Below the pieces are notes generated by a model. That model worked only from the letters and a program-made list of their open reading frames with translations. It was not told the DNA's origin and searched no databases. Source: an uncultured delta proteobacterium (GTDB lineage Bacteria; Desulfobacterota; Desulfobacteria; Desulfobacterales; JAHEIW01). From it: 64,000 nt of DNA. The stretch spans positions 256,001 to 320,000 of the forward strand of contig CAVPNL010000003.1 in the NCBI GenBank assembly GCA_963706575.1. Reading direction: 5' to 3'. Below, piece after piece: positions 13,719 through 39,720 of this stretch (positions are counted from its first letter, which is position 1; every line of letters begins with the position of its first letter). Position numbers and translations under genes: made by a program.

Positions 13719-13814
13719 AAAATAATTTTAATTCAATTGTTTATGACTTTCAAGTCGATAATTTCAAATGATTCTTTTCATGAATGTAACGATTTTCCAA
13801 TCATTTAAAAATAC

Positions 13815-14106: not shown

Positions 14107-14959
14107 ATGGCACTAAGTACAATAAGCTTAACTCCCGGCATGCGGGCCAATCTATTCAGCCTGCAGCAAACGTCCAAGGATTTTGAGATTGTCCAGAAAC
14201 GTTTATCCACCGGCCTGAGAATCAACAGCGCCCTGGATGATCCCATCAACTTTTTCACCGCTCAGGAACACCGGTTGCGGGCAAGTGACCTGGCGGCACG
14301 CAAAGACGGCATGTCTGAAGCCATTCAGACAATCAAAGCCGGCAACGTCGGTGTTGAAAACATCAACAGCCTGATTGCCCAGGCCAAATCGCTGGCTCAA
14401 TCGGCCCTGTCCGCCACATCAACGGATGCCATAACTTTTCGCAGTCAGTATAATACGGTTCTGAACCAGATCAGCCAGATGGCGGCGGATTCCGGTTACA
14501 AGGGCATCAACCTGCTTCAAAGTGCCGAACTAACAATCGAGTTCGCATCAGAAGCTGGCAAATCGACTTTGAAGCTGACCGGTTTCGGAGACACATCTAC
14601 AACTTTCAATATTAATGGTTTGGATACTGAAATGAGCGCTATGGGTTCTGCTTGGATTTCCGGTACGACAATTGATGCGACCGAATATTCAAAATTCCAT
14701 CGACAATCTTGAAACAGCGCGGGGCGAGCTCAGAGTTAGAAGTAAAACGCTGTCCAGCAGTCTGTCAATCATTACGGCGCGCGAAGAGTTCACTGCGCAG
14801 ATGATTAATACGCTGGGCGACGGTGCCTCCAAGCTGACGGAAGCCGATATGAATGAGGAAGGCGCCAACATGCTGATGCTGCAAACGCGTCAGGCACTGG
14901 GTACAACCTCATTAAGTCTGGCCTCTCAGGCAGCTCAAGGGGTTTTGAGACTGTTCTAA
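14107..14959 (+). CDS. flagellin (~283 aa; 1-nt frameshift near 14683), alphaproteobacterial-like N-terminus
   Basis: RLSTGLRINSALDDPINFFTA, DSGYKGINLL; C-terminal LTEADMNEEGANMLMLQTRQALGTTSLSLASQAAQGVLRLF in ORF 14672-14959. Confidence 0.92.
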
Positions 14960-14998: not shown

Positions 14999-15131
14999 TC
15001 TGACTGACCTGATATCCGAATCTTTATATTCTACAAATGATTCAGCCTGATTTGATACCAGCACAAAGATTCGCTCATGATTGATCAACCAGCGGTTTGA
15101 AAGCGGTGCTGATTAGCGGGTGGCAAAAAAA

Positions 15132-15554
15132 ATGGCCCTAAAAATCACATTAAAACCAAATGAAAAAATGATCGTCAGCGGCGCCGTGGTTACCAACGGT
15201 AATACCAAAAACACCGATTTGATCATTGAAAACAATGTGCCGGTTCTACGCCAGAAAGATATTTTGAGTGAAGCGGATGCGACATCGCCCTGCAGCCGAA
15301 TCTATTTTATCATTCAACTCATGTACATCGATGAAGATAATCTAACTGATCACCAACCCATCTATTGGAAATTGGTTCGCGATTTGCTGGATGCAGCCCC
15401 CAGGTTAGCCGGACACATCAATCAGATTAACGAAAATATCCTGGGGGGCAACTTCTACCGGGCCTTAAAACTCGCCGGCGAATTAATCGATTATGAACAG
15501 GAGGTTCTTAAACATGTACGCGAATACACAGACCCAATCGCTCAAAACATATGA
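15132..15554 (+). CDS. flbT: flagellar biosynthesis repressor FlbT
   Basis: MALKITLKPNEKMIVSGAVVTNG, LRQKDIL, SPCSRIYFIIQLMY, FYRALK..LIDYE. Confidence 0.92.
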   Translation: MALKITLKPNEKMIVSGAVVTNGNTKNTDLIIENNVPVLRQKDILSEADATSPCSRIYFIIQLMYIDEDNLTDHQPIYWKLVRDLLDAAPRLAGHINQINENILGGNFYRALKLAGELIDYEQEVLKHVREYTDPIAQNI

Positions 15555-15900
15555 AAGCGTCGACAAAGCCACCCAGTCCGGCCGCGAAATCGAAGCGGCT
15601 GTGCTTACCAAAGCAGCCGTTAAGCTCAAAGAATGCCAGGACGGCTGGGATGCGCCGGATCGGGATAACAGATTAGAGGAAGCGCTGAAATACAACCAGC
15701 GGATCTGGAGTATCTTTCAAAGTGAACTGTCGCGCGAGGATCACGAGCTGCCCAAGAAATTACGTCTGGACATTCTGCGATTGGCGGCATTTATCGATCG
15801 GCGAATTTTCGAAACCATGGCATCACCGGCACCGGACAAACTCAATATCGTCATCGATATAAATAACAATCTGGCCTCCGGCTTGAGAGGTTCACCCTGA
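15514..15900 (+). CDS. flaF: flagellar biosynthesis regulator FlaF
   Basis: REIEAAVL, ALKYNQRIWSIF, LPKKLR, DINNNLASGL; RBS AGGAGG upstream of ATG 15514. Confidence 0.9.
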   Translation: MYANTQTQSLKTYESVDKATQSGREIEAAVLTKAAVKLKECQDGWDAPDRDNRLEEALKYNQRIWSIFQSELSREDHELPKKLRLDILRLAAFIDRRIFETMASPAPDKLNIVIDINNNLASGLRGSP

Positions 15901-16050: not shown

Positions 16051-18507
16051 TTAAACTTCAAACACTTCGATCTGCGTCGGCGCCCTGCCCTCCAAAAATA
16101 TCCGCCACATCTCGCTGTAACCGAGCTCCAGGTTCCTTACAAAACGAGCTGTATCGAAAAGCGGCTTTTTCAGGTGATTGATGTGGAGCTTTTGCCGAAC
16201 GGCATTTAGCTCGGATGGATGTGATGCCAGCTGAACCGCCAGTTTCTCATATTCTTCAAGACAATCAGCGACCAATTCCGGTAGTCCGACGGCACGCAAT
16301 AAACTGGATGACACCCGCGACGCAAAATGACTGCCCTCTATGGTAATCACCGGCACACCGGCCCACAATGAATCGCTGGTGGTCGTGTGGCCGTTGACAA
16401 TCCGGGTGTCCAGAGCCAGATCCGCCCATTTCAGACGTGACAGATGTTGCGCTTTTTCTATCTTCTGTGCAAACACCAGTCGATCAGGGTCGACGCCTCT
16501 ATTGGCGGCCTCCCGGCGCAGATTGCGCCTGGCATTCCGGTTCTCATCAAAAAGCCATAATACGCTGCCGGGAACCTGCTGCAATATCCGCATCCAGCTG
16601 TCAAACAAGACAGGATCAATTTTGTAAGGGAGATTGAACGAGCTGAACACAAAACCTTTATCCGGCAAACCCAGTGCTTTCCGAGTCCAATCCCGAGCTG
16701 CAATTTCCTGTTGATCGTCATTGACCTGATAACAGTGGGGCAAAAAGACCAGTTTTTCATTGTAATAAGGCGCATGGTCCTCAGGGGTAACAATCCTGTC
16801 GGTGATCATATAATCAATGAAATCGGCACCGGTGGTGCCCGGATAACCCAGGTAGTGGACTTGAATGGGAGCCGGGCGACAGGCCAAAATGCCCAGCCTG
16901 GCACCTTTGGTGTGCCCTTTGAGGTCAACTAAAATGTCGACCTCTTCCTCGTAAATGCGTTTGGCCGTATCAATATGAGAGCGTTCACGAATGTCAAAGA
17001 ATTGGTCGCTTTCTTCTATAATCTGATTTCGATAGTGACTGTTATCTTTCGGGCCATAAGAGTAACAATGAACTTCGAATTTTTCCCGGTTATGGAGGCC
17101 GAAAAGACTCCGCATCAAATGAGCAGTGGCATGATCATGAAAATCGCAGGAAAGATAGCCGATTGTAAGCTTAGGCTTTTTTTGTCGTCTGGTTTCAAAT
17201 GCAAAAGGCAGTTTTACGTTTTGTAGTGGTTGTTCAATTTTGCGGCTCCATGTTTTTGCTACGGTCAAATTCATTGCCGGGTCGGAATTTGTTGCCATGC
17301 AAATAAACGGCGGTTGGATGATGGATTGCCCATTATCCGTTGCACGCCGAATCAAAAGATCCAGTTTTTCTGAAAAGCAAGACATTAGGTGCCAGTCGCA
17401 AGTGTGCTGTACCTGATGAATGAGATAACTGTATGCTTCAGCGTAATCGGGGTTGATCGCAATGGCTTTTTGAAAGCAGTCAATTGCTTCATCGCGCCGG
17501 CCCTCTTCGGCTAATACGACGCCCATATAGTTGTATGCCTCGGCAAACTGCGGATTTAGCTGAGTGGCTTTTTGAAAACATCCGATCGCTCCAGCCGTAT
17601 GCTCGGCTTCAGCATAGGTGACTCCTAAATTTAAATACGCTGTGGCGTTTGCAGGGCGGATTTGCAAAGCCTTCTGATAGCAGTCAATTGCCTTACTGAA
17701 ATCACCCTGGTCTTTAAATGTGTTACCCAGGTTAATATGGGCTTCATCGAGCTCTGGTTTTAGTTGAATGGCCTTTTGGCAGTAGAAAATCGCATCGTCT
17801 ATGAAACCCAGCTGTTTTGACAAATTGCCCAGGTTATTGTGGGCTTCGGCCCAGTCCGGTTTGAATTGAATGCAGTGCTTCAAGCAGGTAATGGCTTCGT
17901 CAAAGCGGTCTTTCTTTTCCAAAATATTGGCCTGGTTGTAAAACGCTTCAACCAGCATGGGGTTTAAAGAGGTTGCCTGCCGGTAGCAGGAAACGGCCTC
18001 ATCGAAAAGTCGCTGTTCTTTGAGGGTATTCCCTAAATTATAGTATGCTTCAGCGCTGTTCGGTTTAAGCGCAATCGCTTTTTGATAGGCAGAAGCGGCC
18101 CGGTCAAGGTCGGCCAATTGATGATAGGCAATGCCCATATTGATATAAGTTTCAACGAGATCGGGTTTGATTTGAAGCGCTTTTTGATAGCAGGCAATGG
18201 CCTGCTCGCAGCGGTCGCTATCGCGGTAGGCATTGCCCAGGTTGTTGTGGAAAATGGGTTGATCGGGGACGATTTGAATGGCCCGGCTGATTAAATCAAT
18301 AGCCGCTAAGTTGTCTTGCATCTGATTTAAAAGCACGCCCAATAGATGCAAGGCGTTCGCATTCTCGGGCATAACATCCAGTATCTCTCTGTAATTCTTT
18401 TCGGCCAGTTCCAAATCACCTTGCTGGTGATAATGTAACCCGCGTTCCAGAATTGAGGTCAGATGTGTGGCTGAAGCTTTTTTTGAATGATCCGATCTAA
18501 AATTCAC
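16051..18507 (-). CDS. TPR-containing GT41 glycosyltransferase (OGT/SPINDLY-like)
   Basis: About ten TPRs, then IGYLSCDFHDHAT, DILVDLKGHT, RPAPIQVHYLGYPGTTG, FNLPYKID, NGHTTTSDSLWAGVPV, FASRVSSSLL. Confidence 0.92.
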   Translation of the reverse strand: MNFRSDHSKKASATHLTSILERGLHYHQQGDLELAEKNYREILDVMPENANALHLLGVLLNQMQDNLAAIDLISRAIQIVPDQPIFHNNLGNAYRDSDRCEQAIACYQKALQIKPDLVETYINMGIAYHQLADLDRAASAYQKAIALKPNSAEAYYNLGNTLKEQRLFDEAVSCYRQATSLNPMLVEAFYNQANILEKKDRFDEAITCLKHCIQFKPDWAEAHNNLGNLSKQLGFIDDAIFYCQKAIQLKPELDEAHINLGNTFKDQGDFSKAIDCYQKALQIRPANATAYLNLGVTYAEAEHTAGAIGCFQKATQLNPQFAEAYNYMGVVLAEEGRRDEAIDCFQKAIAINPDYAEAYSYLIHQVQHTCDWHLMSCFSEKLDLLIRRATDNGQSIIQPPFICMATNSDPAMNLTVAKTWSRKIEQPLQNVKLPFAFETRRQKKPKLTIGYLSCDFHDHATAHLMRSLFGLHNREKFEVHCYSYGPKDNSHYRNQIIEESDQFFDIRERSHIDTAKRIYEEEVDILVDLKGHTKGARLGILACRPAPIQVHYLGYPGTTGADFIDYMITDRIVTPEDHAPYYNEKLVFLPHCYQVNDDQQEIAARDWTRKALGLPDKGFVFSSFNLPYKIDPVLFDSWMRILQQVPGSVLWLFDENRNARRNLRREAANRGVDPDRLVFAQKIEKAQHLSRLKWADLALDTRIVNGHTTTSDSLWAGVPVITIEGSHFASRVSSSLLRAVGLPELVADCLEEYEKLAVQLASHPSELNAVRQKLHINHLKKPLFDTARFVRNLELGYSEMWRIFLEGRAPTQIEVFEV

Positions 18508-18564: not shown

Positions 18565-21500
18565 CTATTGGGGTAAATTTTCAAATTTAATCGGCTGTCG
18601 ATCCGTTAGCCCTGTTGGCGGGATTTCCGATAATTGTTGGGCCATGTCGTTCATTTGAATGCATTCGGTGAATAAGTCCAAAATCCCTTTATTAATGATA
18701 TCGCATTCAATCGCAGCCCCGAGCACCCGCATGGCATATTCCACTTTTTTAGCCGCCAGGAGGCTCTGTGCGAGTTCAAGGCACGGAATTTCAAGGTGAG
18801 AGCCCAAAGGAGTATTTTTTAATTTTCGGATGCCATCAAGTCCCTTTTCTTTCGGACCTGCACAGCAGTATGCAGCCGATAGAATAAACTGAGCCGGCGG
18901 GTAATCTGGAAAACTGTTCAACAGGCCCTCGAGAATGCTGATGGTTTTGGGTGCATCGCCGCACTGCAACTCAGCCAGTGCTTGGTTGTATTGCGCTTCT
19001 TTCAGATCCGGGTCGTACTCCACGGCCTTTTTGCCTGCATTAAGGGCGTCTTCAAATATACCAAGCCGATTATAAATGTTTCCCATATTCACATAGGCAT
19101 TTGCAGCCAGCTTCGGATTTGGATTAAGGGCAAGCAGTCTTTGCCACAACTCAAGAGCTTGCTCGTTTTTCTCCAGAACGGTTGCTTGTATCGCCAATTC
19201 CCATAGGGCACGAATATCCTCACCCATCTCGGATAACTTTTTCAGGCCGATATCAAAATAGGTTTCCCCTTTGCGCCCCAGTTTTTCTTGATCCAGCCGG
19301 CCGTAATGGTGTACCGGAATACGGCATTTTTTGGTTTCGATACCATTTCTTTTCAAAAGCGGATCGACCATCTCATGCACCGCCCCTTCAAACCGGATCT
19401 GATCCTTGCCGTAAAACAGCCTTACTTTTTCACTGGGCAGCCACCCGAAAGTCGCTTCTTCATCAGGATATTGTCCATCATTGGGCACCCACCCTACAAT
19501 ATTGGGCACTTTGCTATAGTTTCGGGTGGTAATGGAGTATGCGATCGGCGCCCGGGGTATCTTTTTCACAAGTCTATTAAAATCCGCATGGTCCAGGTGA
19601 GAAATCACCTCATCGCCGTCCAGAATTAAAATCCACTCAGCGGATGCTTTTGATATCGAATAGTTGCGCGCTGCGGCAAAATCATCTCTCCACTCATAAT
19701 CATAGACTTGGGCCCCAAAAGTAATGGCAATATCTTTGGATCGATCCGTGGAACCGGTATCAACGACAATCATTTCATCAACAATCGGCTTTACACTGGC
19801 CAGACATCTGGCGAGATACGTTTCTTCATCTTTAATAATCATGCACAAAGAGACAGGCGCCTTCTTCGAGGATTTGTTAAGGGTCATTGCCCCCAGTTTC
19901 TCTCTGACCTTCAGCGCGGCGCCCAGGATGCCATCCGCAATACCGAATTTGATAATTGCATCTTCAATTTCAAGCATCGCCACCTCATATTTGCCCTGCC
20001 GGATGAGAGAATCGATCAGTATATATTTTATTTTCTGGTTGTTCGGGTACAGCTGCGCCGCCTGACGTGCAACGTCTTCAGTCTTTTCAAAATCACCGAG
20101 CCCTTCGATAAAAGCATGATAATTGGTTGCAATATCTAAATCCGTCGGTGACAGGATGAAACCTTTTTCAAAAAACTTTAGGGCCTCTTCAGGTTGCTTT
20201 GTCTCCAGCTGTAACATGCCTAAATTTGTGTAAGGCTCTCCATACCCCCGATCAGACGTGATTGCTCGTTTGAAGTATTTTTCAGCAGAATCGTGGTCAT
20301 TGTTGCGGTAGGCCAGAATGCCTTTGAGGTTCAAGCCCCGCGCATGGGCGGGATCCATTGCAAGCACCTGTTCAACGCTGGCCCTTGCCGCCTCATAATT
20401 TTCCAGACCTTCTTCCGTATATCCTGAAAGTAAAACTTTTTTTATTTCCGGGTTGCCGTTTTCCGAGGGCATCTCATTTAAAACATCCTTTGCATCCTGA
20501 AATCTTTTTGCAGCCACTAAGATCTCTGCAAGCTCAAGGTAAAGACGCTTTTCTTCAGGTTGAACCCTTATTGCATTCAACAATATCTCTACCGCCTGAT
20601 CAATTTGGCCTTTCTGACTTAATTCATTTGCGTTCGATATATATTGTACGGTCTGTAATGCTTTGGCTTCCGGGTTTTGAGTGCCATTCCATGTTTCATT
20701 ATATTTCTTTCGGTCTTCGCCGGCCGATTTTTCCGTTGAAGCGTTCTTTTTGACTTTGTGCCGATCGTAATGAAAAACATATGTATCAGCGGCAATCAAA
20801 TTCTGATAGCCCCCTGCGACCGACCGGTTGCAAAAGTCTTCGACAATCATTTCTTCTGAAGCAAACTGTTCATCAAAATATCCGATTGTATCGGGTAAAT
20901 CTCGCCGGAAAGCCAGACAAAAACCGGCGAGTTTTCGGGTTGCCACCCGTCTATATTGGTTTTGTTCACGAAACGCTTCTGCAGTGGATTCGAACTCAAG
21001 CCGATCGGAATCGTCAGGATGCATCAGTTGCTGAATGCCTGCTGCCCGATTGGACATGGGGCCCACGACACCGATATTCGGCTCAAGTTTGAAACACATT
21101 TTAAACGCTTTAAGCCAACCTTCCGGTACCGCCACATCATTGTGCATCAAAACAATAATCTCGCCGGCGGCTTTCTGGATCGCCTGATTGAGAGATTCAG
21201 CCCGGCCCTCCGGTCCGGCACACTCAATAATGTGGTAACGGTCGTTATCATTTATAAGTTGTTGCGCCCATTTGAGCATGCCTTTCGTTGACCCGCGATC
21301 GATAAGCAACAACTCGTAAGGATCTGCCGTGTGCGCCTGAATGCTTTTTACGCATTCTTTTACGCGATTTTGGATCCCGTCGAGGCTGATTACAATTGAT
21401 GCGGTTGTTTTGCGGTCAATATCCTGGTTTTCAGATTCTCCTGAATTGATATCCGTTGATTCAATTTTCGCACTTGAAACGCTCACATCGATTAAAGAAT

Positions 21501-24500
21501 CTACGCTCGCTGATGGCGGCTCAATTTGCCGGCTATTCAGGGCCTGAAGATTTTTGCCGGCATCTTCATTGTCCGGCGCCAACGATAGAACCCGTTCATA
21601 AAAACCTTTAGCATCGTCAAACTTTTTGAGCGCCACGCATATGTGACCGGTAATCAGCAGCGTCTCTACATCATCGGGGTGTGTTGCCAGGATGTTCACA
21701 TAAATTTGAAGGGCCTCTTCTACCTTTCCCTGTTCTACGAACAAAAAGTCCGCCTGGTTTTTTTGAAAGTTAATATTATCGGGCATTAATTCAACGGCAC
21801 GTCCATAATGATGCCGGGCTTTTTCTTTGTCACCCGTATGATAATGAAGCACGCCCAGATCATTGTGCGCCAGAGCAAAGCCCGGATAGGTTTGCAGCAA
21901 TTCTTCTAATAGTGAGATCGCTTTGTGCGGATCTCCGTTATTTAATAACGGCTGAATCTCCCGATACAGTTCTTCGGGCGATTTAAGTTCTGGTGTAATC
22001 GGGTTCATTTTGTCCAATTTATTCAGATTGCTTTGGGCAGCTTCATTCTGCGGTTCAAGCTCCAATATGCGTTGATAAAACACTTTGGCATCCTCAAACT
22101 GATGCAATGCCAACGCAAATATGACCGGTGATCAGCAACGTTTCGACATCCTGTGGATCGAGTTCCAAAATTTTAACATAGATTTGCAGGGCCTCTTCGA
22201 CCCTGCCCATTTCAACAACGTAAAAATCGGCCAGATTCTTTTGAAACACCATGTTCTCTGGATCCAGTTGAACGGCTTTTTCATAAAATTGCTGCGCTTT
22301 TTCTTTGTTGCCGGCTTGATAGTGCAAAACGCCCAAATCGTTGTGCGCCAGCGCAAATTGAGGGTAAGATTCTGCCAGCATTTCAAGCTCATTGATCAAT
22401 TGCTCGGGTGTCTTATTTTGCATTGATTGCTGGATCGCTTGATAGATCTCCTGCGGTGTTTTCATGGCTTGAGCCGCCTGACTGTCTGATGGATCGGCAA
22501 ACCGGCGCAGCGGTCTGTCTTTTAAGGTTGTTAAACGCTGCAAAATAAGATCTGTTGACATTTCCCAATCCACTTTTGTCTTAATTTGATTCGCTGCAAT
22601 CAGGCCCCTGTGTTTTGCTTGCTCGGGACGTTCATATACCTGCTTTAATAATTGGATCAAATGAGCCTTGTCGGGCTCCAATAACCAACCGGGTGCTCTT
22701 AAAACATGTCCGTTCAGTTGAACTGATCTTTTGGTGCTGTCGATAAAAAATGCGGTTTCTTCAGAGCAGAAATCGTCACAGGCCCCGCCTTTGGTGACAA
22801 TAACCGGCAACCCGCAGGCCATGGCCTCGGCCACCGGCAGTCCAAACCCCTCCCCGCGATAAGGGTGCACCAGACAATCACAGGCCGTGTATAGGCCGGC
22901 AATTTCCTCATGTTTAAGTGTTTCGGTCAGGTATAAAATTTCCGGCGCGGCCGGATCCTTCTGGATATCTTCAATCATCTGCGCGGCATTTTGTCCCTTG
23001 TAAAAGGACTCCCCCCCCATGTCCTTGATCACAAGGCAAACATCATCTTCGCTGGTAAAGGCCTCTGCATAGGCGCTCAGCAAAATATCTATGCCTTTGC
23101 GCATGATGGTGCCGCCGACAAATAAAAATTTGAACTTTTTATTTGTAGTAACTGGGAGTTTTGCTATTTCCGGATGGAATTGGTTATAATTTACACCGTT
23201 AGGAACAACGAATACCTTATCCGATGATATTCCACTGTTTATGTAAACATCACGAACATAATTGCTCGGCACCCAGAGTTCATCGACCAGGGTTTCCATG
23301 GGCTCTACCCAATCCTTTGGCAGAGCACCGAATTCCCAGGGTTGAATGATAATCCAGTGACCCTCGGGCGGGGGGGTGAAATTGGGCGGCCACTGGTGCC
23401 GCACACAAAAATCAGCCGCACCTGATAGCGGTTTTCGCAGTCGCTCTTCGATCAGGCCGAATCGTTCGGGATCTTCTTCCGGGCCAAACTCATGCGGTTC
23501 ATAGGGAATAAGGGAAAGTTCAATGTCATGACGTCCGGCCAGTTGGACACACAGCTCTCTATTTACCAGAGCCAGACTGTGATTGACGAACTGAGAGCCC
23601 TCCCATTTAACCACTATTTTTTTATTTTTGGCCTTATCGATAAATCTTCCACTATCATCGAAATAATCGCCCCAGCGAGCGAAAAAGGTTTGCAAATTTT
23701 CTTTTACATGATCGAATCGACCCTCTGTTCTTCCTTCATAGTGATATAAGGTACTTTTGGGGTTATAAATAACCTTAAAGCCTTTTGATCTGACTTTCAG
23801 ACACAGATCAATATCTTCGACTCCGTTTTTGTATTGCTCGTCAAAACCGGCACATTCGAAAAACAAATCCCTTTTAATTAACAGGCATGCGCCGGTCACC
23901 ATGTCCAGTTCTTTAAGTTCATTGGCCTCAGGATGGTCGCCCGGTAAATTTCTAAAGGGATGATCCGGTATACCGTTTATAAAACCAATTCCTGCGTGTT
24001 GTATTGTATCGTCAGGATAAAGTAGCTTGCTTCCAACGATCCCCACATCGTCATCGGAATCTGCGGAACCGACCATTTCTTCGAGCCAGCCTTCCTGCGG
24101 CAAGGTATCATTATTCAAAAAAACAAGGTGATGCCCACGACCAAGTCTGGCTCCCTGGTTACAGGCCTTGGCAAATCCCAGATTCTCTTTGTTTGTTATC
24201 ACTTTAACCTTTTCGGGGATGCCGGATAGATATTCCCTGGTTCCATCTGTGGAATTATTATCTATAACGATAACTTCAAAAGAGGAGTTTGTTGAATTCT
24301 TATATAGGGCTTCAATACATCGCTTGGTGTAATCTAGCTGGTTAAAGACCGGGATAATTATCGAACACAACTTGGTTTGTTTGGTATTGATTTTTGAATA
24401 GCGTTTTTGATAATTCGATTGTATATGCAGGACTTCTAAATCCGGTAAAATGCCTTTTCTGCTGATGGCATCATCCGTTATCCATTGAAGGCCTGTAAAT

Positions 24501-26482
24501 TCAGTAATATGTTCTATATTGAATTTTTCACCAATACGTAACCAAAATTCTTGATCCCCATCGGCGATGTAGCGTTCGTCAAAAAATCCAATTTGCGGAT
24601 GCAGTTGTTTTCGCCACATGGGATGGGGTCCCACTAGACAAGTATTCAAGTGGTTTTGAAAGGAGTACGGTGGCCATCTATAGGCGTCAGTATGGGTATT
24701 GTTTTCAAAACTTTCATGCGGTGTTTTTGTAAGATAGGTATCACCGTATACAAGCATGCAGTCAGGATTTTCGTCTAGATATCGGGCTAAAATCTCACAC
24801 GCTTCCTGGTTGAGGATATCATTCGTACTTGCGCTTATGCAGTACCTTCCAGAAGCCTCCCTTATAGCGATATTCCAGGCCGTATATATCCCAATACGAC
24901 CCTTTGTTTTGATGTAAGTAATATTTGAGTATCGCTTCTGAAATTCTTGAACAATTGTTTCTTCATTCTGAGGAGAATGGGCGTCAACAACTACGATTTC
25001 CAAATTTTTACTGATCGTCTGGGACTCTAAGTTCTCCAAACATTCGCGAATAAATTCTTCGGAATTATAGGTAGATACAATAGCGGAAACAATATAGTCT
25101 TTTTTCTCGGCTTTGACTTTTTTGATAATTTGCTTGTCTTTTTCAGTATCTTGCAATTTTTCCCAGTTTTTCGTTATTTGATCATCTTCAGGATTTCGCA
25201 TAAGGTAATAAAGATATATTTCCCTGGCTTTATTGACCTCTCCTGATAATTCAATTTTTTCTCCAAGTTTCAAAAATACATCTCTTACATCGATGTTTTT
25301 AGGGGCAATTTCCAGTGCTTTTTGGCAAAAAATAATGGCGTCATCAATTTTTTCTAAATCCATTGAAATAAGGCCCAGAACCAAAAGAGCTTCCAAATCT
25401 TCAGGATTTTTTCTTATTATATTAAGATATTTTTCAAGTATTTGTTCACGTTTATCAGGTTTATCATAATACGCTGCAAGGTCTTTTCGAAAGTTATGGC
25501 CTTTAGTATAAAGACCTTCCCCTTCTTTGTCTGGAGCCTTGTTCTTTTCAAAATCGATTTGCTTGTTGTTGCCTAATCTTCTCTGTGAATCCAATTTTTG
25601 CTTTAGCTCTTGAAAATCGTATCCCATTTTTGAGACAATATCTGGACCTAATGTCTCTAGATACTGATCGGCAAATCCAACAAGCTCTGGAGACGAAATG
25701 TTTTTTAACCACTTGTCGATATTGTGGGTTACTGGCCGGCTATGTTGATAAATACCAACCGGGTCACCAAATCTCCCTATTGGTTTTGGTTTATCGCCAT
25801 AAGTCAGCATTTCTGGTCGAAAGGAAATTCCAAGTTTGTTGCAAATTGCTCTTACAGAATTTTCTGAATACTCAACCAATTCCTCATATTTTACAACAAT
25901 GGCATCTCTTGCCAATAGTTGCATTCCCTTGACTAAGTTGGACGGACCCTGGAGGATATCTAAATAATTTGGACTTTTTTTGAGGGTTTCTGGATTGTTT
26001 TGAAACCATGTTTTTAAGGTAGATGAAAGTACAGCCAGCGGATTTCTTAAAAGAAAAATGAATTTGGCTTCAGGAAAAACCTTTTTGAGTTCAGGAATGA
26101 TCAAATGATACCTTGGGGTTTTATCCAAGAATAATCGTTTACCCGATACCTCAAGTGCACGGTTATACAGGGTCGAGCCCATATGTCTCAAAGCCTTATA
26201 ATACAGTTCCTGACCTTCGGGCACCTGTGAAAGAAAATCTTCTAATCCTTGCCTGGCTAGATTGGAATCGAATTCTGCTAGTAAACCGTTATTTTTTAAT
26301 GCATAAATCGGATAAAGCATAATCCAAGGTTCTGCAATGGTGTGAATGTCCGAGTGCCCACTTAATATTCGCTGCAAAAGGGTGGAACCGGCTCGCGGTT
26401 GTGAAATCAGAAAAATAAGGTTTTGGCCAAACATATCCATCTCCGATGTATTTTCCTGCTTTGAAGGGTTAACGTTTTGCAT
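18565..26482 (-). CDS. giant multidomain protein (~2,640 aa): sulfotransferase-TPR-GT2-GT2-GT4-TPR-GT2-TPR-GT2-TPR; split by a 1-nt frameshift at ~22112
   Basis: ORFs 22094-26482 and 18565-22113 join inside a TPR module (GHICV|ALHQFEDAK, cf. intact copy GHICVALKKFDDAK). Motifs: PRAGSTLL/DKTP; SAIVSTYN; SIIIPVFN..FLNND; HPYRGEGFGLPVAEAMACG; LMHND; SLCMIIKDE..LDGDE. Confidence 0.85.
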
Positions 26483-26565
26483 AACTTGGTGAATTCGATC
26501 GAATTTGCCTGAATTTATAGTTGGACTTGACTATTCTATCATCCAACTCTACATCACCATTAATC

Positions 26566-27345
26566 TCAAACTCGGATCTTGTCCCATAAATCCACGTCGA
26601 ACTTGTTGGTTTGAACACAGTGTATTCCGCTACCATCATGACCAATATTCTTTACTAATGACTTTCTTGGGTAGATAGTATATTTTTCATTCAAAAACTG
26701 ATAGTAGAAAATCTTTACATCAAGTGCATCCATTTTGCCGGCTGCATCCAACAAAATCATATTTAGTAAATCTTCACCATATTTTGATAATTCTTCAACT
26801 TCTTTATTATTTGAGAATCTTTTCAGAACTTCAGCATTATCTAAATAAGAAATCTTCTTAAATCGGTCATGCCAGATACCCATGCCCCAGGCACAAGCTC
26901 TTCGCAGTAAATAAATTTCAGGAATATAGTCAGCAGGAATACTTATTGGTGGAGAGTATCCGGAAATGCTAAATATTTTCTCATCTTTCTCATAAAAATT
27001 TAACGATTCATTCATGAATTTGAGAAAACCGGGGGCTGTAACAATGTCTTCTTCCAAGTATATGCACTTCCCATAATTTTCAAGAAGTTCAAAAATTCCA
27101 TCCCGATTATTTCGTATTCTACTATTTTGCGTCTTTTTAAAGACATGCACATTTTTGAAACCATTGATTGTATCTACATACTTCCTGATTGCATCTACCT
27201 TTTTTTCGTCGCCTGGTTTTGCTCCATCTGAAAATATATATAAATCACTTTCTTTCGCCAATGTATTAGCTTTTAGAGCTTTTATGGTTTGTTTTAGGTG
27301 TAGCAATCTTGAATATGTTGATAATCCTATTGGGGCTAAGCTCAA
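26566..27345 (-). CDS. glycosyltransferase (GT-A/GT2-like sugar transferase); C-terminus possibly frameshifted
   Basis: LAPIGLSTYSR, DLYIFSDG, IYLEEDI, SISGY, AWGMGIW, NIGHDGSG. Confidence 0.8.
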   Translation of the reverse strand: MSLAPIGLSTYSRLLHLKQTIKALKANTLAKESDLYIFSDGAKPGDEKKVDAIRKYVDTINGFKNVHVFKKTQNSRIRNNRDGIFELLENYGKCIYLEEDIVTAPGFLKFMNESLNFYEKDEKIFSISGYSPPISIPADYIPEIYLLRRACAWGMGIWHDRFKKISYLDNAEVLKRFSNNKEVEELSKYGEDLLNMILLDAAGKMDALDVKIFYYQFLNEKYTIYPRKSLVKNIGHDGSGIHCVQTNKFDVDLWDKIRV

Positions 27346-27491
27346 AATGCTCTCCTTCTAAAAGTTAAAAATGGATGCATAACTTGACCGATCCGTAGAT
27401 TAAATTTTTCTAAAAGTCATTTGATTTCCCGCCCAATTACTTGATCAAGAACGGCTTAAAAATAAAACGCGGACTTCGCTTGTTACAATCT

Positions 27492-28483
27492 CTATGATGT
27501 TTGTATGCATGACAACGCCTTCTTTGCTTCGGCTTCGTTGAATTCATCATCAAAATTCAAGCTTGGCTTAAAATAAGTTGGGCCGGTATATGCCTTATTT
27601 GTGTTGTACCCAAGCAATTGTAATCGGGAGAGTATCTCGTGGTACTGTCGTTGCAGGATCTTTACAGAATTTTTCATATGATATAACGATGCTGTGTTCG
27701 GGCTGAATTCTATGAAGCGTTTTTTCGATATGTTTGTTGGTGTAATAGACTTGACCTGCTAGTTGCATATAAACATTTTTGGTTTTCAATGTTTCGTATT
27801 CAGGTGGTTTGAACGAATACCATTTACTAAGATCATTAAAAAATATTTTGCGCGTTTTAAATAACGATGCCATATTGTGTACAGCGTTTCTTTTGATCAA
27901 TAGGAACAAAGGCTTTTGCAATATATGATTTAAATAATCAATATTCCAATTCATAATAAGTGCTTTGAGTAATAGCGGTTTTTCAAAACAACTTTCTATC
28001 GCGGCTAATTCTTTAAGGAACAATTCATGATTAACTTCTGCCAGTTTCGCTTTGCTCAGCGACTGGATTTTGCCGAAATGGAAGAATCTACGCCAAAAAT
28101 ACCAAAATTCGTGAGGTGAGTGAGCACCCTTTGTTTTGCCCAGCCGGGACGTGAAGTCAAACTGCTTGTTACCGTACAGTTCTCCGTGCTTATCAAAATC
28201 AACGAATATTTTGTGGAGCAATCCCCCGATATACGGGGCATTGTAAAAGCGAGACATAATATTGCTGGGATATGCAAACAAGCCTGTAGCAGCTAACCAT
28301 TGATATAGCAAGTGTTGTTCCGCTACGGGGGTTTCCAACAATAAACACAGCAGGTAGTTTGGGCTGGGTCAGGTTAGAAACCTCATGGAGCTCTGGCTCT
28401 TCAAACAAGCAGTTGACTTTGTCGAGCAGATCTTCTAAAGCTTTCGCACGTTTATGCGTGTCCGTTCGCAAGTCGTTATCCAT
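27492..28483 (-). CDS. sulfotransferase family protein (two frameshifts)
   Basis: VFIVGNPRSGTTL PAPS-binding loop (ORF 28199-28543) continues as LYQWLA..PHEFWYFW..ISYEKFCKDP (27595-28341), with tail in 27492-27677. Confidence 0.78.
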
Positions 28484-29455
28484 TACATTCCTTAATAACA
28501 GAAACAATACGATGCATATCGCGTCGACCATACCGTTGGTCAATGGGAAGCGGTATCAAGTGTTCTACCAGATACGATTCAAAAACGTTCGAACCATTAC
28601 CCATTTCAGATATTTGTGGCCAATATGTGGGGGTAAAAATATTATTTTCTTGCAAGCGTTCTCTGAGGTGTTTATTATCGCAGAGATATGGATACATCAT
28701 GGGACCAGTGATTGTGCCGCCATCAATCATAGGGGAAAGTTGGTTGAACTTATGCAGAGCCTTGTGTAGCTCATTGAAATTTTTATTTCTCTTGCTGCGG
28801 ACCCATTCATAATCAATGTTTAATAATATTTTCTTTGTTAAGCGTGACATGCCGGCCATAGATCGATTGTCGAATTCTTGCTCATGGGATCTGAAGTCAG
28901 AAAAACCTTCCGAGGCTCCAAGTTCAATTCTTTTTAACAGATGCAAGCATCGCTCATAAGAAGCCTGGTCTTGTGGCAGGGATAGAGTCGAGTCCTCTGT
29001 TTGCATAAGCAAAACCACCATCAGGGACGCCAAAAAATTTTCTCGGCGAATAAAAGGTTGGTGCGTGGCTGCAGGGTAAATTAAAAAAGGCCTGGGCATT
29101 GTCTATAATAGTATTGGTATATTTCTGTGCCAACTTCTTAGCCGTTTCATTTTTAAGGCCAAAATAATTAATATACAATATATACTCATCACTACCGACC
29201 GTGAAGTTTTGATCCGGTTCAAGATCCTCATTGATAGAATAAAAATGCATAGTCTATCTGTAGTTTTTGAAGCGGCTGAAGCATTACGGGACATATATAC
29301 AATGGTATGTATACCTTTTTCACCGCAAGGCTTTCTAAGATATATGCGAACGCATTTCTCCCGCTATTAAGAGCTGCGGCGTTGTCATGAAAAAGGCTAT
29401 CGTATTGACGCAACTCTAACTCAAAATAACCACCTATTGGCTGTGTGCTGCTCAT
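28476..29455 (-). CDS. DegT/PLP-transferase-like protein (two frameshifts)
   Basis: IGGYFELE, NSGRNA, YINYFG, IIDNAQAF, FYSPRKFFGVPDGG, LPIDQRY across three ORF fragments. Confidence 0.72.
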
Positions 29456-29462
29456 GGATTAC

Positions 29463-30609
29463 TCAACTAAAATTAAAAGTAAGCTTCAGAGAAACTTCCT
29501 TTAGAGAACCTTCTTCTAACGAAACCTCAAAACTGTCATCATCGTAAAGAGTGGGACGGTTGAGTTTGTGAACTAATTTGTTTTTTTCAAGAAAGGATAT
29601 AATAATTTTTATAACGATCTTTGTAAGTTTTTTTGAAGTTGGAGAAATCAACTTCGTCAAATATCTGCCCAATTGACTTTTTTTGTATATCCTCAATTGA
29701 AACTGTCGGGATATTGTAAAAATCAGCTATTTCCATCATTCGCAAATCGCGCGGCACAAGTACTGCCGGAACTCCCTGGATTAGTGCAGCAATGCATCCA
29801 TGCAGTCGCGCGCCAATCACAAAGTCATGTGCTCCTATAATGTCAAACCACAATTTGTACCGGTTCGGGAAAATTCCGTTTCTATTAATTGTCGTCAAAA
29901 CAGTTTTGTAATCGTAAAATTGTAGATACTGAGACATCTCCTGCTTGTGCAGCAAATCATCATTGTTGCGATTATTGGTAAATATAACCTCATCCAAAAA
30001 ATCCTGACCGAGAATTGTTGCCGATTTCATAGCCTCAAGAGCATATGCGGACATTGTCCGGTGATAGGCAATCAGTGGTTTAGTCATCGACTTATTTTTG
30101 TGTATGTGAATATTGTCCTTGAGTTGCCATTGTAATGAAGGACATCCGACGGGGATAATATTGTCAAAACCATGTTTTTGCAGTATTGATGCGGTGTGCG
30201 GACCCCGTACGCCTATTGCTTCTGAACGTTCTGAAACAAGATGTAGCAATCTGATTACTGAAGGATGCAATTCCACGATATCATTTGCTGCTGCAATATA
30301 ATCCTCCATACCGAGGGACAGGGCTATTGTTTTCATGTCCAGTTTTTCAACAACATCTGCTAGATAGGAAATATCCCGTTTTCTGTGGATGTGCGTTGAA
30401 AGCGCAAGCACGCACACATCGTATTTATTTCGCAAGGAAGATATGTCAGAAAAATCATCAATGTAGTCCGCATCAAACTGACGCAACAATGCTTGGCAAA
30501 TAAAAGATGCACCATGATTGCTTGCGTAATACGTATTATTTGACTTCCATTTTTCGAATGAGCCCGGATAGTTGTATTCAGGGCTTAGCCCAATAATCAT
30601 TGTTTTCAT
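29463..30609 (-). CDS. polysaccharide pyruvyl transferase family protein (frameshift near 29590)
   Basis: IGVRGPHT, VGCPS, DFVIGARLHGCIAALIQGVP. Confidence 0.8.
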
Positions 30610-30622
30610 GGTCGGAATTCCT

Positions 30623-31318
30623 CTAATTTAATTCATAGATATTAAGCAGTTCTTTTATTCTTTCCTTTGAATTAAACATCATAACATCAATGATGGAAAG
30701 GTTAGGTATAAACGGATCTTTAAATTGACTGTACGTAATGTCAGATATGCGATGGAATGATAATTCGATGCCTGACTTTGCGAATGAGCTTTTATCATAC
30801 AAGGTTTGCCCGCCAATCGGGTTTATGTACTCATCTGCATTAAGAGCAGTGCACAAGGCGATGACTTTTTCCTGTGCTTTGAGCGAATGGTTAATGCTTA
30901 TCGAAGAAGAAATAATAAATTTAGTTTGTATTTCAAGATAGGCACACAGACTTTTAGTAACGCTTAAAAGGTAGTCAAAAAGGTGATGATTTACCGGCGG
31001 GATGATGTCCTTTAGTAATTGGAAGGTATCATTGAAGTATGGAGAACGTTCATACGCGCCTTTAATGACTCGCAATATTTTTTTATAATCATATGTTTCT
31101 GCTATTTCCAAATCACACACGTGAGAATAATCAGACGCTTTCTTTAACGGAACAACAATATAGCGGTCGCGGTCAAAATTTAAAATTCTGTTGCGGCGTA
31201 TCCAGCCGGTTTTTGTGAATTCGATGTTGTCATATATGACAAATGTATCGACACAGTTAATAAGCTGAAAATAACCCAAGTATGGGAAGAAATATGGCTG
31301 CATAATTGCCAGTTTCAC
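30623..31318 (-). CDS. WbqC family protein
   Basis: AIMQPYFFPYLGYFQLI, WIRRNRI, YINPIGG, NLSIIDVMM. Confidence 0.93.
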   Translation of the reverse strand: MKLAIMQPYFFPYLGYFQLINCVDTFVIYDNIEFTKTGWIRRNRILNFDRDRYIVVPLKKASDYSHVCDLEIAETYDYKKILRVIKGAYERSPYFNDTFQLLKDIIPPVNHHLFDYLLSVTKSLCAYLEIQTKFIISSSISINHSLKAQEKVIALCTALNADEYINPIGGQTLYDKSSFAKSGIELSFHRISDITYSQFKDPFIPNLSIIDVMMFNSKERIKELLNIYELN

Positions 31319-31406
31319 ACCGAATACCTTTGATGTATGTTGTTATTTACTGTCAAGAGATGGTGTTTCATAGTAATTGCATAAGAGGTATAAGTCGCCG
31401 GCTATT

Positions 31407-32589
31407 TTAATGTGAAAAACAAGCTGAACGTATATTGAAATCCCACGTATTTCTTTTGGCGTGTAATGCTATGACGTCGCTGATTTTATGGATATCTTCT
31501 TCCCTCAGGGAACCATAGAGCGGTAGTGTTAAAATTGATTTTGATATCTTTTCCGCAACAGGCAGGTTTTCCGGAGCGGAGGATGGATAGTTGCTGTAGC
31601 ATTGAAATTGGCTGCACAGCGGATAAAAATATCTGCGGGTGAAGATATTGTATTTTTTCAGTTCATTGTAGAGCTCATCTCGACTGATACCAAACTTGTT
31701 TTGGTCGACAGTAGTAACAAAATTGTAATAGTTGTGTTTGACTTTCGGCATCTCGGTTCTGAAGTTAATTCCAGGAATTTCACTTAGCCTATCACGATAG
31801 ATCATTGTTAGATGTTTTCGTTTCTCGATTTCTTCTCCAACTAAATCAAGCATTAATAAACCGATAGCTGCCTGAAATTCATTCATCTTGGCATTAATTC
31901 CTGGAACAACAATATTTTCTTCATTCTTAAAGCCAAAATTTTTTGCAAACTCGAGACGTTCCCTGAGGCTTTCGTCCTTAAAAGTTAAAGCACCGCCCTC
32001 GAAGGTGTGATAAATTTTTGTTGCATGGAAACTAAACATCGATAAATCTCCGAAATTACCAATTTTTTCCCCGTTTACCTCCACCCCGAATGAGTGAGCT
32101 GCATCATAAATTACTCGCAAACCATACCGGTCTGCTATTTGTTGAATTCCTTGACGGTATCACATGGATAACCGAAATACGTGGACCGGCAAAATTGCAG
32201 TGGTATTCGGTGTAATCATGCTTTCAATGCGCGTAGGGTCTAAATTATACGTATATGGGTCAATGTCACAAAATACAGGAGTGATTCGATTCCAGTATAA
32301 AACATGAGGCGTGGCAGCAAATGTAAAAGGAGTAGTGATTACTTCCCCTGACAATCGCAACGCTTGACATGCTAATTGCAAGGCCAGTGTTCCATTGCAG
32401 AAAAGGCTGATGTTGGGAACATCCAGGTACTTCTTGAGCTCTGCTTCAAATTCCAGGTGCTGAGGATCCCACGTTTGTCAGCCACTGAGAATCCCAGATT
32501 TCATCAATTTTTCTGTAAACGGCTGCCCGATCTGGTAATGGCGGTCTTGAAATGTAGATTGGTTCTTCGAACGGCGTAATTTGAGCCAT
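31407..32589 (-). CDS. DegT/DnrJ/EryC1/StrS sugar aminotransferase, VioA-like (several frameshifts)
   Basis: MAQITPFEEPIYISRP start; GEVITTPFTFAAT; YDAAHSFG; SFHATK; GINAKMNE; RRYFYP. Confidence 0.85.
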
Positions 32590-32768
32590 AATTATGGATG
32601 ACATCCCATGGAATAGATTATAATTTCTCCGGGCAAACGTACTTATAGCTATGCAAGCCTAGTCTTACGCTAACATTCCGGTTGCTATTAAAGTCAGTTA
32701 GATGCCCGGAGTTGCTAAAATTTGCTGTAAAAATATTTTGTTAAGGCTGAACACGGCATTTAGAAAAC

Positions 32769-32784
32769 AGCAATATATATGCCA
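32769..32784 (-). promoter_or_regulatory. sigma54 promoter of glycan-modification operon
   Basis: Minus strand TGGCATATATATTGCT; GTCAATTTTGTGAC box at 32858-32871. Confidence 0.8.
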
Positions 32785-32980
32785 CCTTTAGGTGAGTTGA
32801 AATTTCGTGTTATATTAGAGATATAGGATCCTGCAAGAGATCAGAGATAGCTTTTAGGTCAATTTTGTGACACCCGAACAGAAAATTTTGCCTATTGCAT
32901 CTGCAAACTAGAACGATATCATAGTGAATTGGGATAAAAATGAATTGGTCTGGATAAGGAGGATTATTAACGAATAAAAC

Positions 32981-33721
32981 CTATTCCGCATACCCCATTT
33001 GCTGTAAATAATGGCCAAAATACTGATTGCACAGGGCTAAGTTTTCTGGGGTCATTTGGTGTTTAAATCTGCCCGACACACCTTGGTTATAATGCAAAAA
33101 TCCTTGCATCTTTTTATTGTTTAAAATTCGATTTTGCGAATAACTCTCAATTATCTCTTCGAGCTGTGAAGATGCTAATTTTAAATCTAAAAAGTCCATC
33201 AATTTGATCATCTCTCTTTTTGGGTTGGAAACTAAATCTTCATACCTGCAAATTAATATTTGATTTAATTGGCGATATTGATTCCAAACACCCAATACGT
33301 CGTGGGCAAACATGATAGCGTTTTCCAGATTATTCAATTTGGCAAATGTGTCCGTCCTTCGCTTAGAGCGCAAATCATTGCCATGTTCGAAAGCTGAGAT
33401 AGCAACATCTCTAGGATCACGGTAGATATAGGTAATCTTAAAAATCCCCTTTCGAACAAGTTCCTTTAAGGCAGCGGTGGGACCCGAGTGGGTCTTTACT
33501 GCGAACGTGAAGCCTGCATGGTGCAAAACCTCAAGACGCCTTAAATTGAAAGGGCTCAGCACCTCAATATTGCAGTTGTGGTACAACAGCATATCGTTAA
33601 GCTCAAATTTATCTCTAATGAATCTCACATCTTGATGCCCTGCACGTATCAGAAGATCATTTGTTAAATTAAAATACCAGCCAGTTCCTGCCTTTTGCAT
33701 TCCTGCTGAGATGACAATCAT
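32981..33721 (-). CDS. sulfotransferase domain protein
   Basis: SAGMQKAGTGW P-loop, VKTH, YIYRDPRDVAIS, RYEDL, GVSGRFK. Confidence 0.85.
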   Translation of the reverse strand: MIVISAGMQKAGTGWYFNLTNDLLIRAGHQDVRFIRDKFELNDMLLYHNCNIEVLSPFNLRRLEVLHHAGFTFAVKTHSGPTAALKELVRKGIFKITYIYRDPRDVAISAFEHGNDLRSKRRTDTFAKLNNLENAIMFAHDVLGVWNQYRQLNQILICRYEDLVSNPKREMIKLMDFLDLKLASSQLEEIIESYSQNRILNNKKMQGFLHYNQGVSGRFKHQMTPENLALCNQYFGHYLQQMGYAE

Positions 33722-33797
33722 ACTAGAATTTTCCTGGTTTGGATATTTCGCTATTTTAATTAAAATGTTGAGGGCACTAATTCAGTAATGGATATCG

Positions 33798-33813
33798 TGC
33801 AAATAATATACCA
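33798..33813 (-). promoter_or_regulatory. sigma54 promoter of sulfotransferase gene
   Basis: Minus strand TGGTATATTATTTGCA; GTCAATTATATGAC box at 33884-33897. Confidence 0.75.
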
Positions 33814-33945
33814 ATTTCGATAAAAAAAAGAACAATAATTTAAGATAATTATAACAATCCTAAATATTAAGCTCATCTGCGAAGTCAATTATATGACGAA
33901 CAGGAAACGGCCAAATGTTTATATGCATACTTAAGTATAAACCTC

Positions 33946-33973
33946 TAAAGTAATTTTTATCTATTACCGATAT
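33946..33973 (+). promoter_or_regulatory. sigma28-like promoter of TPR gene
   Basis: TAAAG...ACCGATAT with 16-nt spacer, ~40 nt before ATG 34015. Confidence 0.55.
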
Positions 33974-34014
33974 TTATATCATGTGATATTAACTTTTTTA
34001 ATGGATTGAAATAA

Positions 34015-39718: not shown

Positions 39719-39720
39719 AA

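Follow-up and report, generated by a model that had tools for sequence, protein, structure and literature searches.

A giant modular protein encoded beside flagellin in an uncultured delta proteobacterium: a predicted flagellin O-glycosylation enzyme with an exchangeable front half

Known flagellin glycosylation relies on separate enzymes of one or two domains. The locus analyzed here, part of a 64,000-nucleotide stretch of DNA from an uncultured delta proteobacterium of sediment (hereafter, the window), raises the question of whether a whole chain-building pathway is fused in one polypeptide, as appears to be the case for a giant gene that faces flagellin, flbT and flaF. We favor, with a probability of about 0.72, the explanation that one cytoplasmic enzyme of 2,925 aa O-glycosylates the adjoining short flagellin before its export. 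The genes concerned are:

14107..14959, plus strand: short flagellin with a Ser/Thr-rich variable tip (283 aa in the relative L059; extra base at ~14683 in the window)
15120..15900, plus strand: flbT and flaF
16051..18507, minus strand: TPR and GT41 (OGT/SPINDLY-like) gene
18565..27345, minus strand: giant modular glycosyltransferase, ~2,925 aa when read, with the help of relatives, through three single-base insertions (~26580, 26500 and 22110)

We first delimited the giant gene. Two minus-strand ORFs, 22094-26482 (1,462 aa) and 18565-22113 (1,182 aa), span 7,918 nt (3n+1), and the frame changes within a TPR module whose intact paralogous module is 61% identical in amino acids and 72% in nucleotides. 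The ORF coordinates and this paralogue agree with the preliminary description, which had seen two ORFs meeting inside a TPR module and had joined them into a CDS of 7,917 nt (~2,640 aa). However, that N-terminus was placed too late. In three relatives, L138 (90.9% nucleotide identity to the window), L139 (86.8% over 13.2 kb) and L140, the bases at ~26578-26581 and 26500 are absent and the upstream ORF 26566-27345 is in frame with the sulfotransferase; protein P0023 carries the same fusion of the equivalent ORF with the sulfotransferase. Because these relatives and P0023 have the upstream ORF in frame, the gene very likely forms one frame from 27345 to 18565, encoding ~2,925 aa. Coverage of the whole gene was pieced together, since L139 ends in the middle TPR array and L059 covers the core. 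From N- to C-terminus, the domains are as follows (all on the minus strand):

26500..27345: GT-A domain with a GT13-like fold (POMGNT1/GnT-I) and an EED motif (fusion in L138, L139, L140 and P0023; model; Foldseek)
25583..26440: sulfotransferase PF13469 with QPRAGST and RNP motifs (Pfam 6e-28; motifs)
25175..25414: TPR block (domain scan)
24383..25096: GT2a, with STND replacing NTDD (motifs; six homologues)
23633..24376: GT2b, with canonical motifs DNNSTD, LNND, ED and YH
22508..23617: GT4 (GT-B), with the EX7E motif EGFGLPVAE
21529..22465: two tandem TPR modules of ~150 aa each, the first holding the insertion at 22110 and a swap boundary (~22423)
20674..21417: degenerate GT2, a predicted pseudoenzyme (motifs; low-confidence GT-A model)
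19879..20652: middle TPR array of the constant core (domain scan)
19222..19869: GmaR/SunS-like GT2 with motifs DTGSTD, DGDE, VHE and HYG, a predicted initiating protein O-glycosyltransferase
18604..19221: C-terminal TPR array (domain scan)

The domain order given by the preliminary description was correct for the part that it covered, but its count of five glycosyltransferases missed the N-terminal domain: there are six GT-type domains, five of which present intact or plausible motifs. The L139 copy of the N-terminal domain yielded a structure model with a pLDDT of 94.9, whose best Foldseek matches are GT13 folds (5ggf, E 6.6e-11; TM 0.51-0.58; 11-15% identity). Because it presented fold matches with no Pfam and no PDB sequence match, we describe this domain as like GT13 and claim no membership beyond the likeness of fold. 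The EX7E of GT4 is intact, as are the PAPS-binding motifs. The proposal of up to four extending transferases stands in part: the other GT motifs are intact or plausible, but one domain lacks the presumed catalytic base. Indeed, the degenerate GT2 has a hydrophobic residue in place of the presumed catalytic Asp (the NxD Asp and the His are kept), and 58 of 58 close copies likewise lack this base. The functions of catalytic residues in these GT2 domains are presumed from the general mechanism, and the structure model of the degenerate domain (mean pLDDT 58.6) supports a GT-A fold loosely, its active site not being readable from it; we predict that this domain is a pseudoenzyme. The STND of GT2a is a non-canonical motif, which we counted against our preferred explanation. 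A sequencing error was considered for this motif and dropped, as STND is shared by six homologues at 65-82% identity. No membrane segment was found in the giant protein by 19-residue hydropathy windows, none of which exceeded 1.8 (maximum 1.38-1.61).

The closest solved relative of the C-terminal GT2 is the GT domain of GmaR (PDB 22ao; E 4e-28), and SunS is also matched (6.5e-12), in line with the earlier view that this GT2 is of the protein-glycosyltransferase kind; its match to TIGR04195 (8e-16) is below the cut-off. DGDE, VHE and HYG are present in the giant protein and a TPR array follows on the C-terminal side; of 189 homologous copies, 183 keep the DxD, HE and H motifs intact. This is also the most conserved domain, 97% identical to that of L059 (81-95% for the other measured parts of the core), and no other catalytic domain comes after it in 119 of 120 long homologues, a set chosen by the presence of the GmaR-like region. 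The layout differs from that of GmaR proper (a single N-terminal GT and a MogR antirepressor in ~637 aa), the GT being C-terminal and followed by ~220 aa of TPRs up to the chain end. The initiator is not of the FlmG/Maf type either: the constant domain is GT-A and no Maf (PF01973) match was found in the giant protein. These results suggest that the GmaR-like GT2 likely attaches the first sugar to flagellin.

The N-terminal side of the gene was compared with L059, which is ~90% identical in the core. The features of this side are:

22423..34014, no strand: exchangeable block, made of the front half of the giant gene and the upstream sugar genes
27595..33721, minus strand: sugar and tailoring genes of low GC, upstream of the giant gene (Sulfotransfer_3 protein, unclassified 325-aa protein, pyruvyl-transferase-like, WbqC, DegT aminotransferase and Sulfotransfer_1 protein)

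The window matches L059 at 89.6% identity as far as 22423, loses the match upstream of this point and regains it, at 89%, from 34015. One boundary of the swap (~22423) lies inside a TPR repeat and the far end lies at ~34015. Within these limits L059 possesses another front half and other upstream sugar genes, its genome carrying a nonulosonic-acid-type block in place of the exchangeable one. The genes at 27595..33721 are split by +1 insertions in the window and intact in L139. On a core tree of 56 rows, built by a quick search, the core-adjacent module changes 16 times (the minimum being 3), and its label is also clustered by descent (shuffled mean of 23.9 changes; 0 of 200 as low as 16). Across relatives the C-terminal core is constant, and the front half is exchanged together with the upstream sugar-synthesis genes.

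Under the explanation that we favor, the TPR arrays would hold flagellin and the GmaR-like GT2 would start the glycan, probably with a HexNAc, on Ser/Thr residues in the exposed tip of flagellin. GT4, GT2b, GT2a and the GT13-like domain would then lengthen the chain, drawing on nucleotide sugars, among them an amino-dideoxyhexose that DegT and WbqC would make, and the sulfotransferase would put a PAPS-derived sulfate on an outer residue. The degenerate GT2 may serve as a non-catalytic binding or spacer unit, and recombination events that fall within the repeated TPR modules or close to them would alter the outer glycan and keep the linkage to flagellin. Donor sugars are not readable from sequence.

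We further asked whether domain order could mirror sugar order. Proteins of this family may be colinear glycan assembly lines similar to a PKS/NRPS: the domains, read from C to N, would list the sugars starting with the one on flagellin, and every module would take the product of its C-terminal neighbor, with tailoring at the far end and with recombination at TPR repeats reprogramming the outer glycan. Alternatively, fusion would merely co-locate and co-inherit the enzymes. This second account is compatible with our preferred explanation and opposed to the colinear one: a glycan would be built on flagellin, but its sugars would not follow the sequence of domains and might form branches or repeats, and the swapping of contiguous blocks would preserve the domain order. 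Module order was kept in 36 of 39 pairs across 33 architectures. None of the 33 architectures had a tailoring domain beside the core (shuffled mean 5.0; as low in 9 of 5,000 shuffles), and the mean relative position of the tailoring domains was 0.19 (0 of 5,000 as low); these shuffles overstate significance because the architectures are related. The core-adjacent slot accepts only 4 module types, against 13-16 further out, which, as with the position of the tailoring domains, speaks against simple co-location. Results were similar with and without 12 possibly truncated proteins. When sulfo- and methyltransferases were taken by themselves the effect was weaker (66 of 5,000 shuffles as low for a position next to the core, 261 of 5,000 for the first position). 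In favor of co-location, homologous exchange at shared modules would keep the order without any chemistry, methyl- and sulfotransferases are often internal (G003, G034 and the giant protein), and the separate upstream enzymes must act in trans. The order pattern fits a colinear assembly line and also inheritance in blocks. We give co-location somewhat less than even odds; the colinear account is tentative, at appreciably less than an even chance. If domain order does mirror sugar order, glycans would become predictable from gene sequence and could be built by domain shuffling, and the product of the giant protein would be a sulfated oligosaccharide on flagellin.

The assignment of flagellin as the target rests on neighborhood. 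The earlier expectation that homologues neighbor flagellin was borne out in the window itself, in 12 of 20 relatives with a core match (core on the flagellin contig) and in the wider set, where flagellar genes lie within 10 kb of 39 of 76 loci (28 of 39 when limited to loci of at least 15 kb). Of the relatives that gave a flagellin match, 16 of 19 have the core, versus 4 of 21 of those that gave none: G003, G011 and G020 (79-85% complete) and G012 (97% complete, with a core fragment only). A flagellin fragment, flbT and flaF adjoin the giant gene in G022, flagellin is on a different contig from the core in G040, and linkage cannot be judged in G001, G016 and G034. An unlikely alternative is that the enzyme acts on other surface proteins (such as pilin or hook) instead of flagellin or in addition to it, or that the adjacent GT41 initiates and the giant protein only extends. 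GmaR-like domains are also found in loci without flagellar genes (37 of 76, many of them short and some archaeal), and a cyanobacterial Ogt reportedly modifies pilin (10.1101/2021.07.06.449578). Against initiation by GT41, 9 of 12 flagellin-linked relatives have no GT41 gene between flaF and the giant gene, whereas the GmaR-like domain is constant. The adjoining GT41, as a possible initiator, was counted against our preferred explanation. No oligosaccharyltransferase or flippase Pfam family was detected among the cluster genes, no tRNA in the window and, with a strict pattern, no sigma-54-like motif upstream of flagellin.

The sulfotransferase presents the features of PAPS-dependent enzymes (QPRAGST as 5'-PSB and RNP as 3'-PB), and an APS kinase, as a source of PAPS, is encoded on contig C18 of the source genome. 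Its best PDB match is the CurM sulfotransferase (1.5e-13) and its best NCBIfam match, far below the cut-off, is NoeE (2.4e-24), which we take to be a sugar sulfotransferase. The sulfate had been proposed as a terminal cap, but the fusions in L138, L139, L140 and P0023 put the GT13-like domain before the sulfotransferase, which is second from the N-terminus; they likewise overturned our placement of it as the N-terminal domain. P0039, P0044 and P0084 are N-truncated proteins. Sulfation of the protein (Tyr, Ser or Thr) or of a non-sugar substituent, such as an aminoacyl group on an amino sugar, appears quite improbable. In its favor are weak matches to tyrosylprotein sulfotransferases (E ~1e-3), better ones to PKS sulfotransferases and the TPR block right after the domain; the match to NoeE and the GT2 that comes next after this sulfotransferase type in 6 of 6 architectures (five of GT2a type) oppose it. 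The Clostridioides difficile type B glycan, capped by a taurine-containing peptide according to the accessible text, also speaks for it (PMC5207245).

Finally, we examined the frame breaks. The preliminary description had proposed an extra base in the TPR module. All 4 of the runs considered, which come from 3 samples, lack a base at 22107-22113 (those with small word shares were set aside), each bridging Logan contig at ~22110 has one gap (7 of 7 among the matches listed), and L059, 89.6% identical over 6,375 bases, possesses an intact ORF of 2,626 aa without this base, the sole other indel there being an in-frame one of 3 nt. The extra base at ~22110 is very probably an assembly error, and the three breaks (~26580, 26500 and 22110) are probably sequencing errors. 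That the breaks are real, marking separate genes or a decaying locus in the source strain, is very improbable: they crowd more densely into the low-GC block (~1 per kb) than into the core, and the core is naturally split in the relatives G001 and G040, but where the frame of the window departs from that of L139 and L059 the cause is a single extra base in the window, with no premature stop substitution seen, every bridging contig listed lacks the base at 22110, single extra bases also strike flagellin, and other window genes shift frame relative to relatives (e.g., a kinase at 35483).

Multi-domain O-antigen enzymes of the WbbB kind also bring several GT domains together in a single chain, with a terminating enzyme at the N-terminus, but they use a lipid carrier and ABC export and are not known to have TPR arrays or a protein acceptor. 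The giant protein is predicted to be a variant of the cytoplasmic flagellin O-glycosylation of GmaR and of C. difficile type B. According to the accessible text of the sources, GmaR of Listeria monocytogenes, a flagellin O-GlcNAc transferase, transfers GlcNAc to flagellin and is a 637-aa protein in which a single GT is joined to a MogR antirepressor domain (PMC9638930). It shares with the giant protein the GT2 subfamily, the TPR array that follows, the flagellar context and the lack of a membrane segment; here, in contrast, GT2-TPR ends a much longer chain that carries five further GT-type domains and a sulfotransferase, and no antirepressor domain was identified. In C. difficile type B, sequential GT2-family enzymes beside fliC (GT1, GT2 with a methyltransferase domain, and GT3) likewise build a short O-glycan (PMC5207246), described as GlcNAc, two rhamnoses, an amino sugar and a sulfur-bearing cap, but the genes are separate, the cap is a taurine sulfonate peptide instead of PAPS-derived sulfate, and the accessible text does not mention intragenic cassette swapping (PMC5207246; PMC5207245). 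FlmG of Caulobacter crescentus, an organism with FlaF and FlbT, also joins a flagellin-binding TPR domain to a cytoplasmic O-glycosyltransferase; as far as the accessible text describes it, it has one GT-B domain, of another fold, and adds one pseudaminic acid without chain extension (PMC7591256). Flagellin glycosylation islands, e.g. in Geobacillus, carry variable GT2, GT4 and sugar-synthesis genes beside flagellin, and the term TPR is absent from the main text of that paper (PMC5109656). Here the island boundary cuts through a gene, the variable enzymes being fused to a constant initiator. A literature search that left out most subscription journals and all supplements found no description of such multi-domain flagellin enzymes. 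What appears new is a fixed predicted initiator whose front half swaps along with its sugar-supply genes. These findings point to sulfated filament glycans and to rapid surface variation in sediment sulfate reducers. The family comprises 731 proteins of 1,287-4,097 aa at E <= 1e-30, with source labels that include Desulfobacterales, Syntrophus and Nitrospirota; its cultured carriers, Desulfosarcina alkanivorans PL12 and four Geomonas strains, make the glycosylation model directly testable.

The giant gene of the window is assembled from three ORFs:
26566-27345, minus strand: N-terminal GT13-like domain
22094-26482, minus strand, 1,462 aa: sulfotransferase, TPR, GT2 (GT2a), GT2 (GT2b), GT4, TPR (Pfam)
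18565-22113, minus strand, 1,182 aa: TPR, GT2, TPR, GT2, TPR (Pfam)

The two longer ORFs meet within a TPR module whose downstream paralogue is intact. The preliminary description attributed this junction to one extra T and called for a read check at ~22112; the extra base is very probably an assembly error. Over the region compared (21950-22300), one base is missing at 22107-22113 in all four runs from three samples, and the seven bridging contigs among the matches listed (93 further records) each present a single gap there. The locus L059 comes from a Desulfobacterales MAG and is 89.6% identical to the window across 6,375 bases; the base at 22110 is absent from it, and its ORF of 2,626 aa is intact. 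The length of ~2,640 aa and the sulfotransferase N-terminus first proposed did not hold. The ORF at 26566-27345 shares 78% identity with the N-terminal part of the homologous protein P0023, where its counterpart continues in frame into the sulfotransferase, and the bases at ~26580 and ~26500 are missing from the matching loci L138 (90.9% nucleotide identity), L139 (86.8% over 13.2 kb) and L140. The gene therefore runs from 27345 to 18565 and encodes ~2,925 aa. In L139 a single open frame runs from the GT13-like domain into the middle TPR array, at which point the contig stops; the full gene is found in no single record, and L139 and L059 overlap across the C-terminal core.

Several genes of this genome (25 contigs, 5.67 Mb) shift frame relative to relatives within the window, including flagellin and a histidine kinase. 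Single extra bases split many genes of the window (flagellin at 14683, the kinase at 35483-37064, a gene at ~50007 and sugar island genes at 27595-32658), so gene lengths are underestimated by ORF calling in this assembly.

We propose, with a probability of about 0.7, that the giant protein glycosylates flagellin in the cytoplasm, through enzymatic steps that we infer throughout. Its TPRs would bind flagellin, the C-terminal GmaR-like domain would start the glycan, GT4, GT2b, GT2a and the GT13-like domain would extend the chain, and the sulfotransferase would decorate an outer residue. A strict C-to-N colinearity of the domains is a bolder reading, to which we give less than even odds. GmaR is a 637-aa GT-TPR-antirepressor protein adding GlcNAc to flagellin (PMC9638930), the TPR domain of FlmG is its flagellin-binding part (PMC7591256), separate GT1-GT3 in C. 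difficile type B build a tetrasaccharide capped by a taurine peptide (PMC5207246, PMC5207245), and Geobacillus has separate glycosyltransferases in variable islands (PMC5109656). The giant protein would work like these systems but is neither GmaR nor FlmG. Our literature search, limited largely to main texts in open-access journals, found no paper on such fused multi-domain flagellin enzymes.

A short flagellin gene, flbT and flaF lie opposite the giant gene and its TPR-GT41 neighbor, in facing orientation, with the fli/flg operon 8 kb beyond. The flagellin of L059 (283 aa) carries 18 Ser/Thr within a 60-residue variable tip. Among 40 relatives, which are kin and hence not independent, the core was matched in 20, flagellin in 19 and both in 16. 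The preliminary description asked whether homologs neighbor flagellin: core and flagellin share a contig in 12 of the 20 relatives with a core match (G008, G014, G018 and G024 with the C-terminal piece only, the G024 match being weak), and flagellar genes occur in 39 of 76 wider loci, or 28 of 39 when the loci are 15 kb or longer. The remaining genomes comprise G040, with flagellin on a different contig, G001, G016 and G034, whose contigs end too early to show linkage, and G003, G011, G012 and G020, in which no flagellin match was found. A target other than flagellin, or initiation by GT41, is unlikely; 9 of the 12 linked relatives lack, at this position, the GT41 gene that adjoins the giant gene in the window. 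Slightly less likely still is that the sulfotransferase modifies the protein or a non-sugar group. The sulfotransferase domain keeps both PAPS motifs, and the genome has an APS kinase gene at another locus. That the gene is truly split in this strain, as its ORFs read, is very improbable.

The glycosyltransferases of the preliminary description retain their catalytic motifs only in part. GT2b is canonical, GT4 has EX7E, and the C-terminal GT2, nearest to GmaR (4e-28) and SunS, keeps DxD, HE and H in 183 of 189 copies. GT2a carries STND instead of NTDD; because 6 of 59 other copies examined have it too, STND is a subfamily trait, and GT2a is a predicted transferase. In the GT2 flanked by TPR arrays, the ED motif has V, I, A or F at its second position, which we take to be that of the catalytic base, in every one of the 58 copies that reach 39% identity to the window's, and the NxD Asp is present in the same 58; the fully canonical copies (26/115) are all distant. 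The domain is kept in frame in L059 (81% identity) and is probably a pseudoenzyme. The N-terminal domain had no Pfam match and no PDB sequence match. The predicted model of its L139 copy (pLDDT 94.9) folds as GT-A, most like POMGNT1 and GnT-I, and the domain groups with glycosyltransferase clusters in Atlas.

Relatives share the core (TPR modules, degenerate GT2, TPR, GmaR-like GT2, TPR) and differ in their fronts:
L059 front: unknown domain, FkbM, GT4, GT2
L059 upstream: NeuB, cytidylyltransferase, formyltransferase and PseB/PseC-like genes (Pse labels as read from the sequences)
Window front and upstream block: sulfotransferases, WbqC, DegT, pyruvyl-transferase-like gene

Identity to L059 fades at ~22423, within the first TPR module; further along the same contig it resumes from 34015 (89%). 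The GC-content of the exchangeable block is 0.38, versus 0.46-0.48 in its flanks. The best GT2a matches (82%) sit in proteins whose cores are just 49-69% identical. In a quick IQ-TREE phylogeny of 56 cores, the core-adjacent module changed 16 times (minimum 3) against a shuffled mean of 23.9, indicating that descent also matters; P0070, sister of the window's core, has a different core-adjacent module. Directly downstream of nonulosonic-acid synthesis genes, an N-terminal domain without Pfam or NCBIfam match (L059:3425-4330) is a candidate new nonulosonate transferase. A split 325-aa island gene (28476-29458), intact in L139 and without Pfam match, lies between the pyruvyl-transferase-like and sulfotransferase genes.

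The core-region search returned 731 proteins (1,287-4,097 aa). From the 120 best matches and 15 proteins taken from loci, we kept 65 with a single-GmaR core and dropped 70 that had multiple GmaR copies, lacked the degenerate GT2 or were cut. These 65 form 33 distinct architectures, ignoring unnamed stretches. With the corrected protein, 39 module pairs occur two or more times, and 36 of them keep a single order (shuffles averaged 0.32 and never exceeded 0.59); all three exceptions stem from a single protein that has a tandem triplet. The slot adjoining the core holds 4 module types and the next slots 13-16. Tailoring domains have a mean position of 0.19 (0 = N-terminus; 0/5,000 shuffles as low) and adjoin the core in none of the 33 architectures. 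These results were little altered without 12 possibly truncated proteins. The order matches the prediction of a colinear assembly line, but this is suggestive only, because order would likewise be preserved by block inheritance, and the 33 architectures are related.

Among the homologues, P0095 contains a tandem repeat of a three-GT block, and P0001, P0024, P0082 and P0094 have as many as five GmaR-like domains, or more, per chain. Radical SAM, GT10, NTP-transferase, glycerophosphotransferase-like and Maf-like (PF01973) domains are fused in P0004-P0008, P0016, P0064, P0110 and P0116. The loci L031/L032 (G033:C438) and L033 (G037:C182) encode further giant ORFs rich in TPRs, of 3,077 aa and no fewer than 4,377 aa; both lack the GmaR-like core. 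Finally, the window contains two dispersed repeats: a REP- or MITE-like palindromic element at 13560-13725 (~90 genome matches, 60 of at least 80 bases), with very high depth in sediment metagenomes, and an inverted-repeat element at 39715-39880, with 186 matches in this genome and many in the L059 genome.
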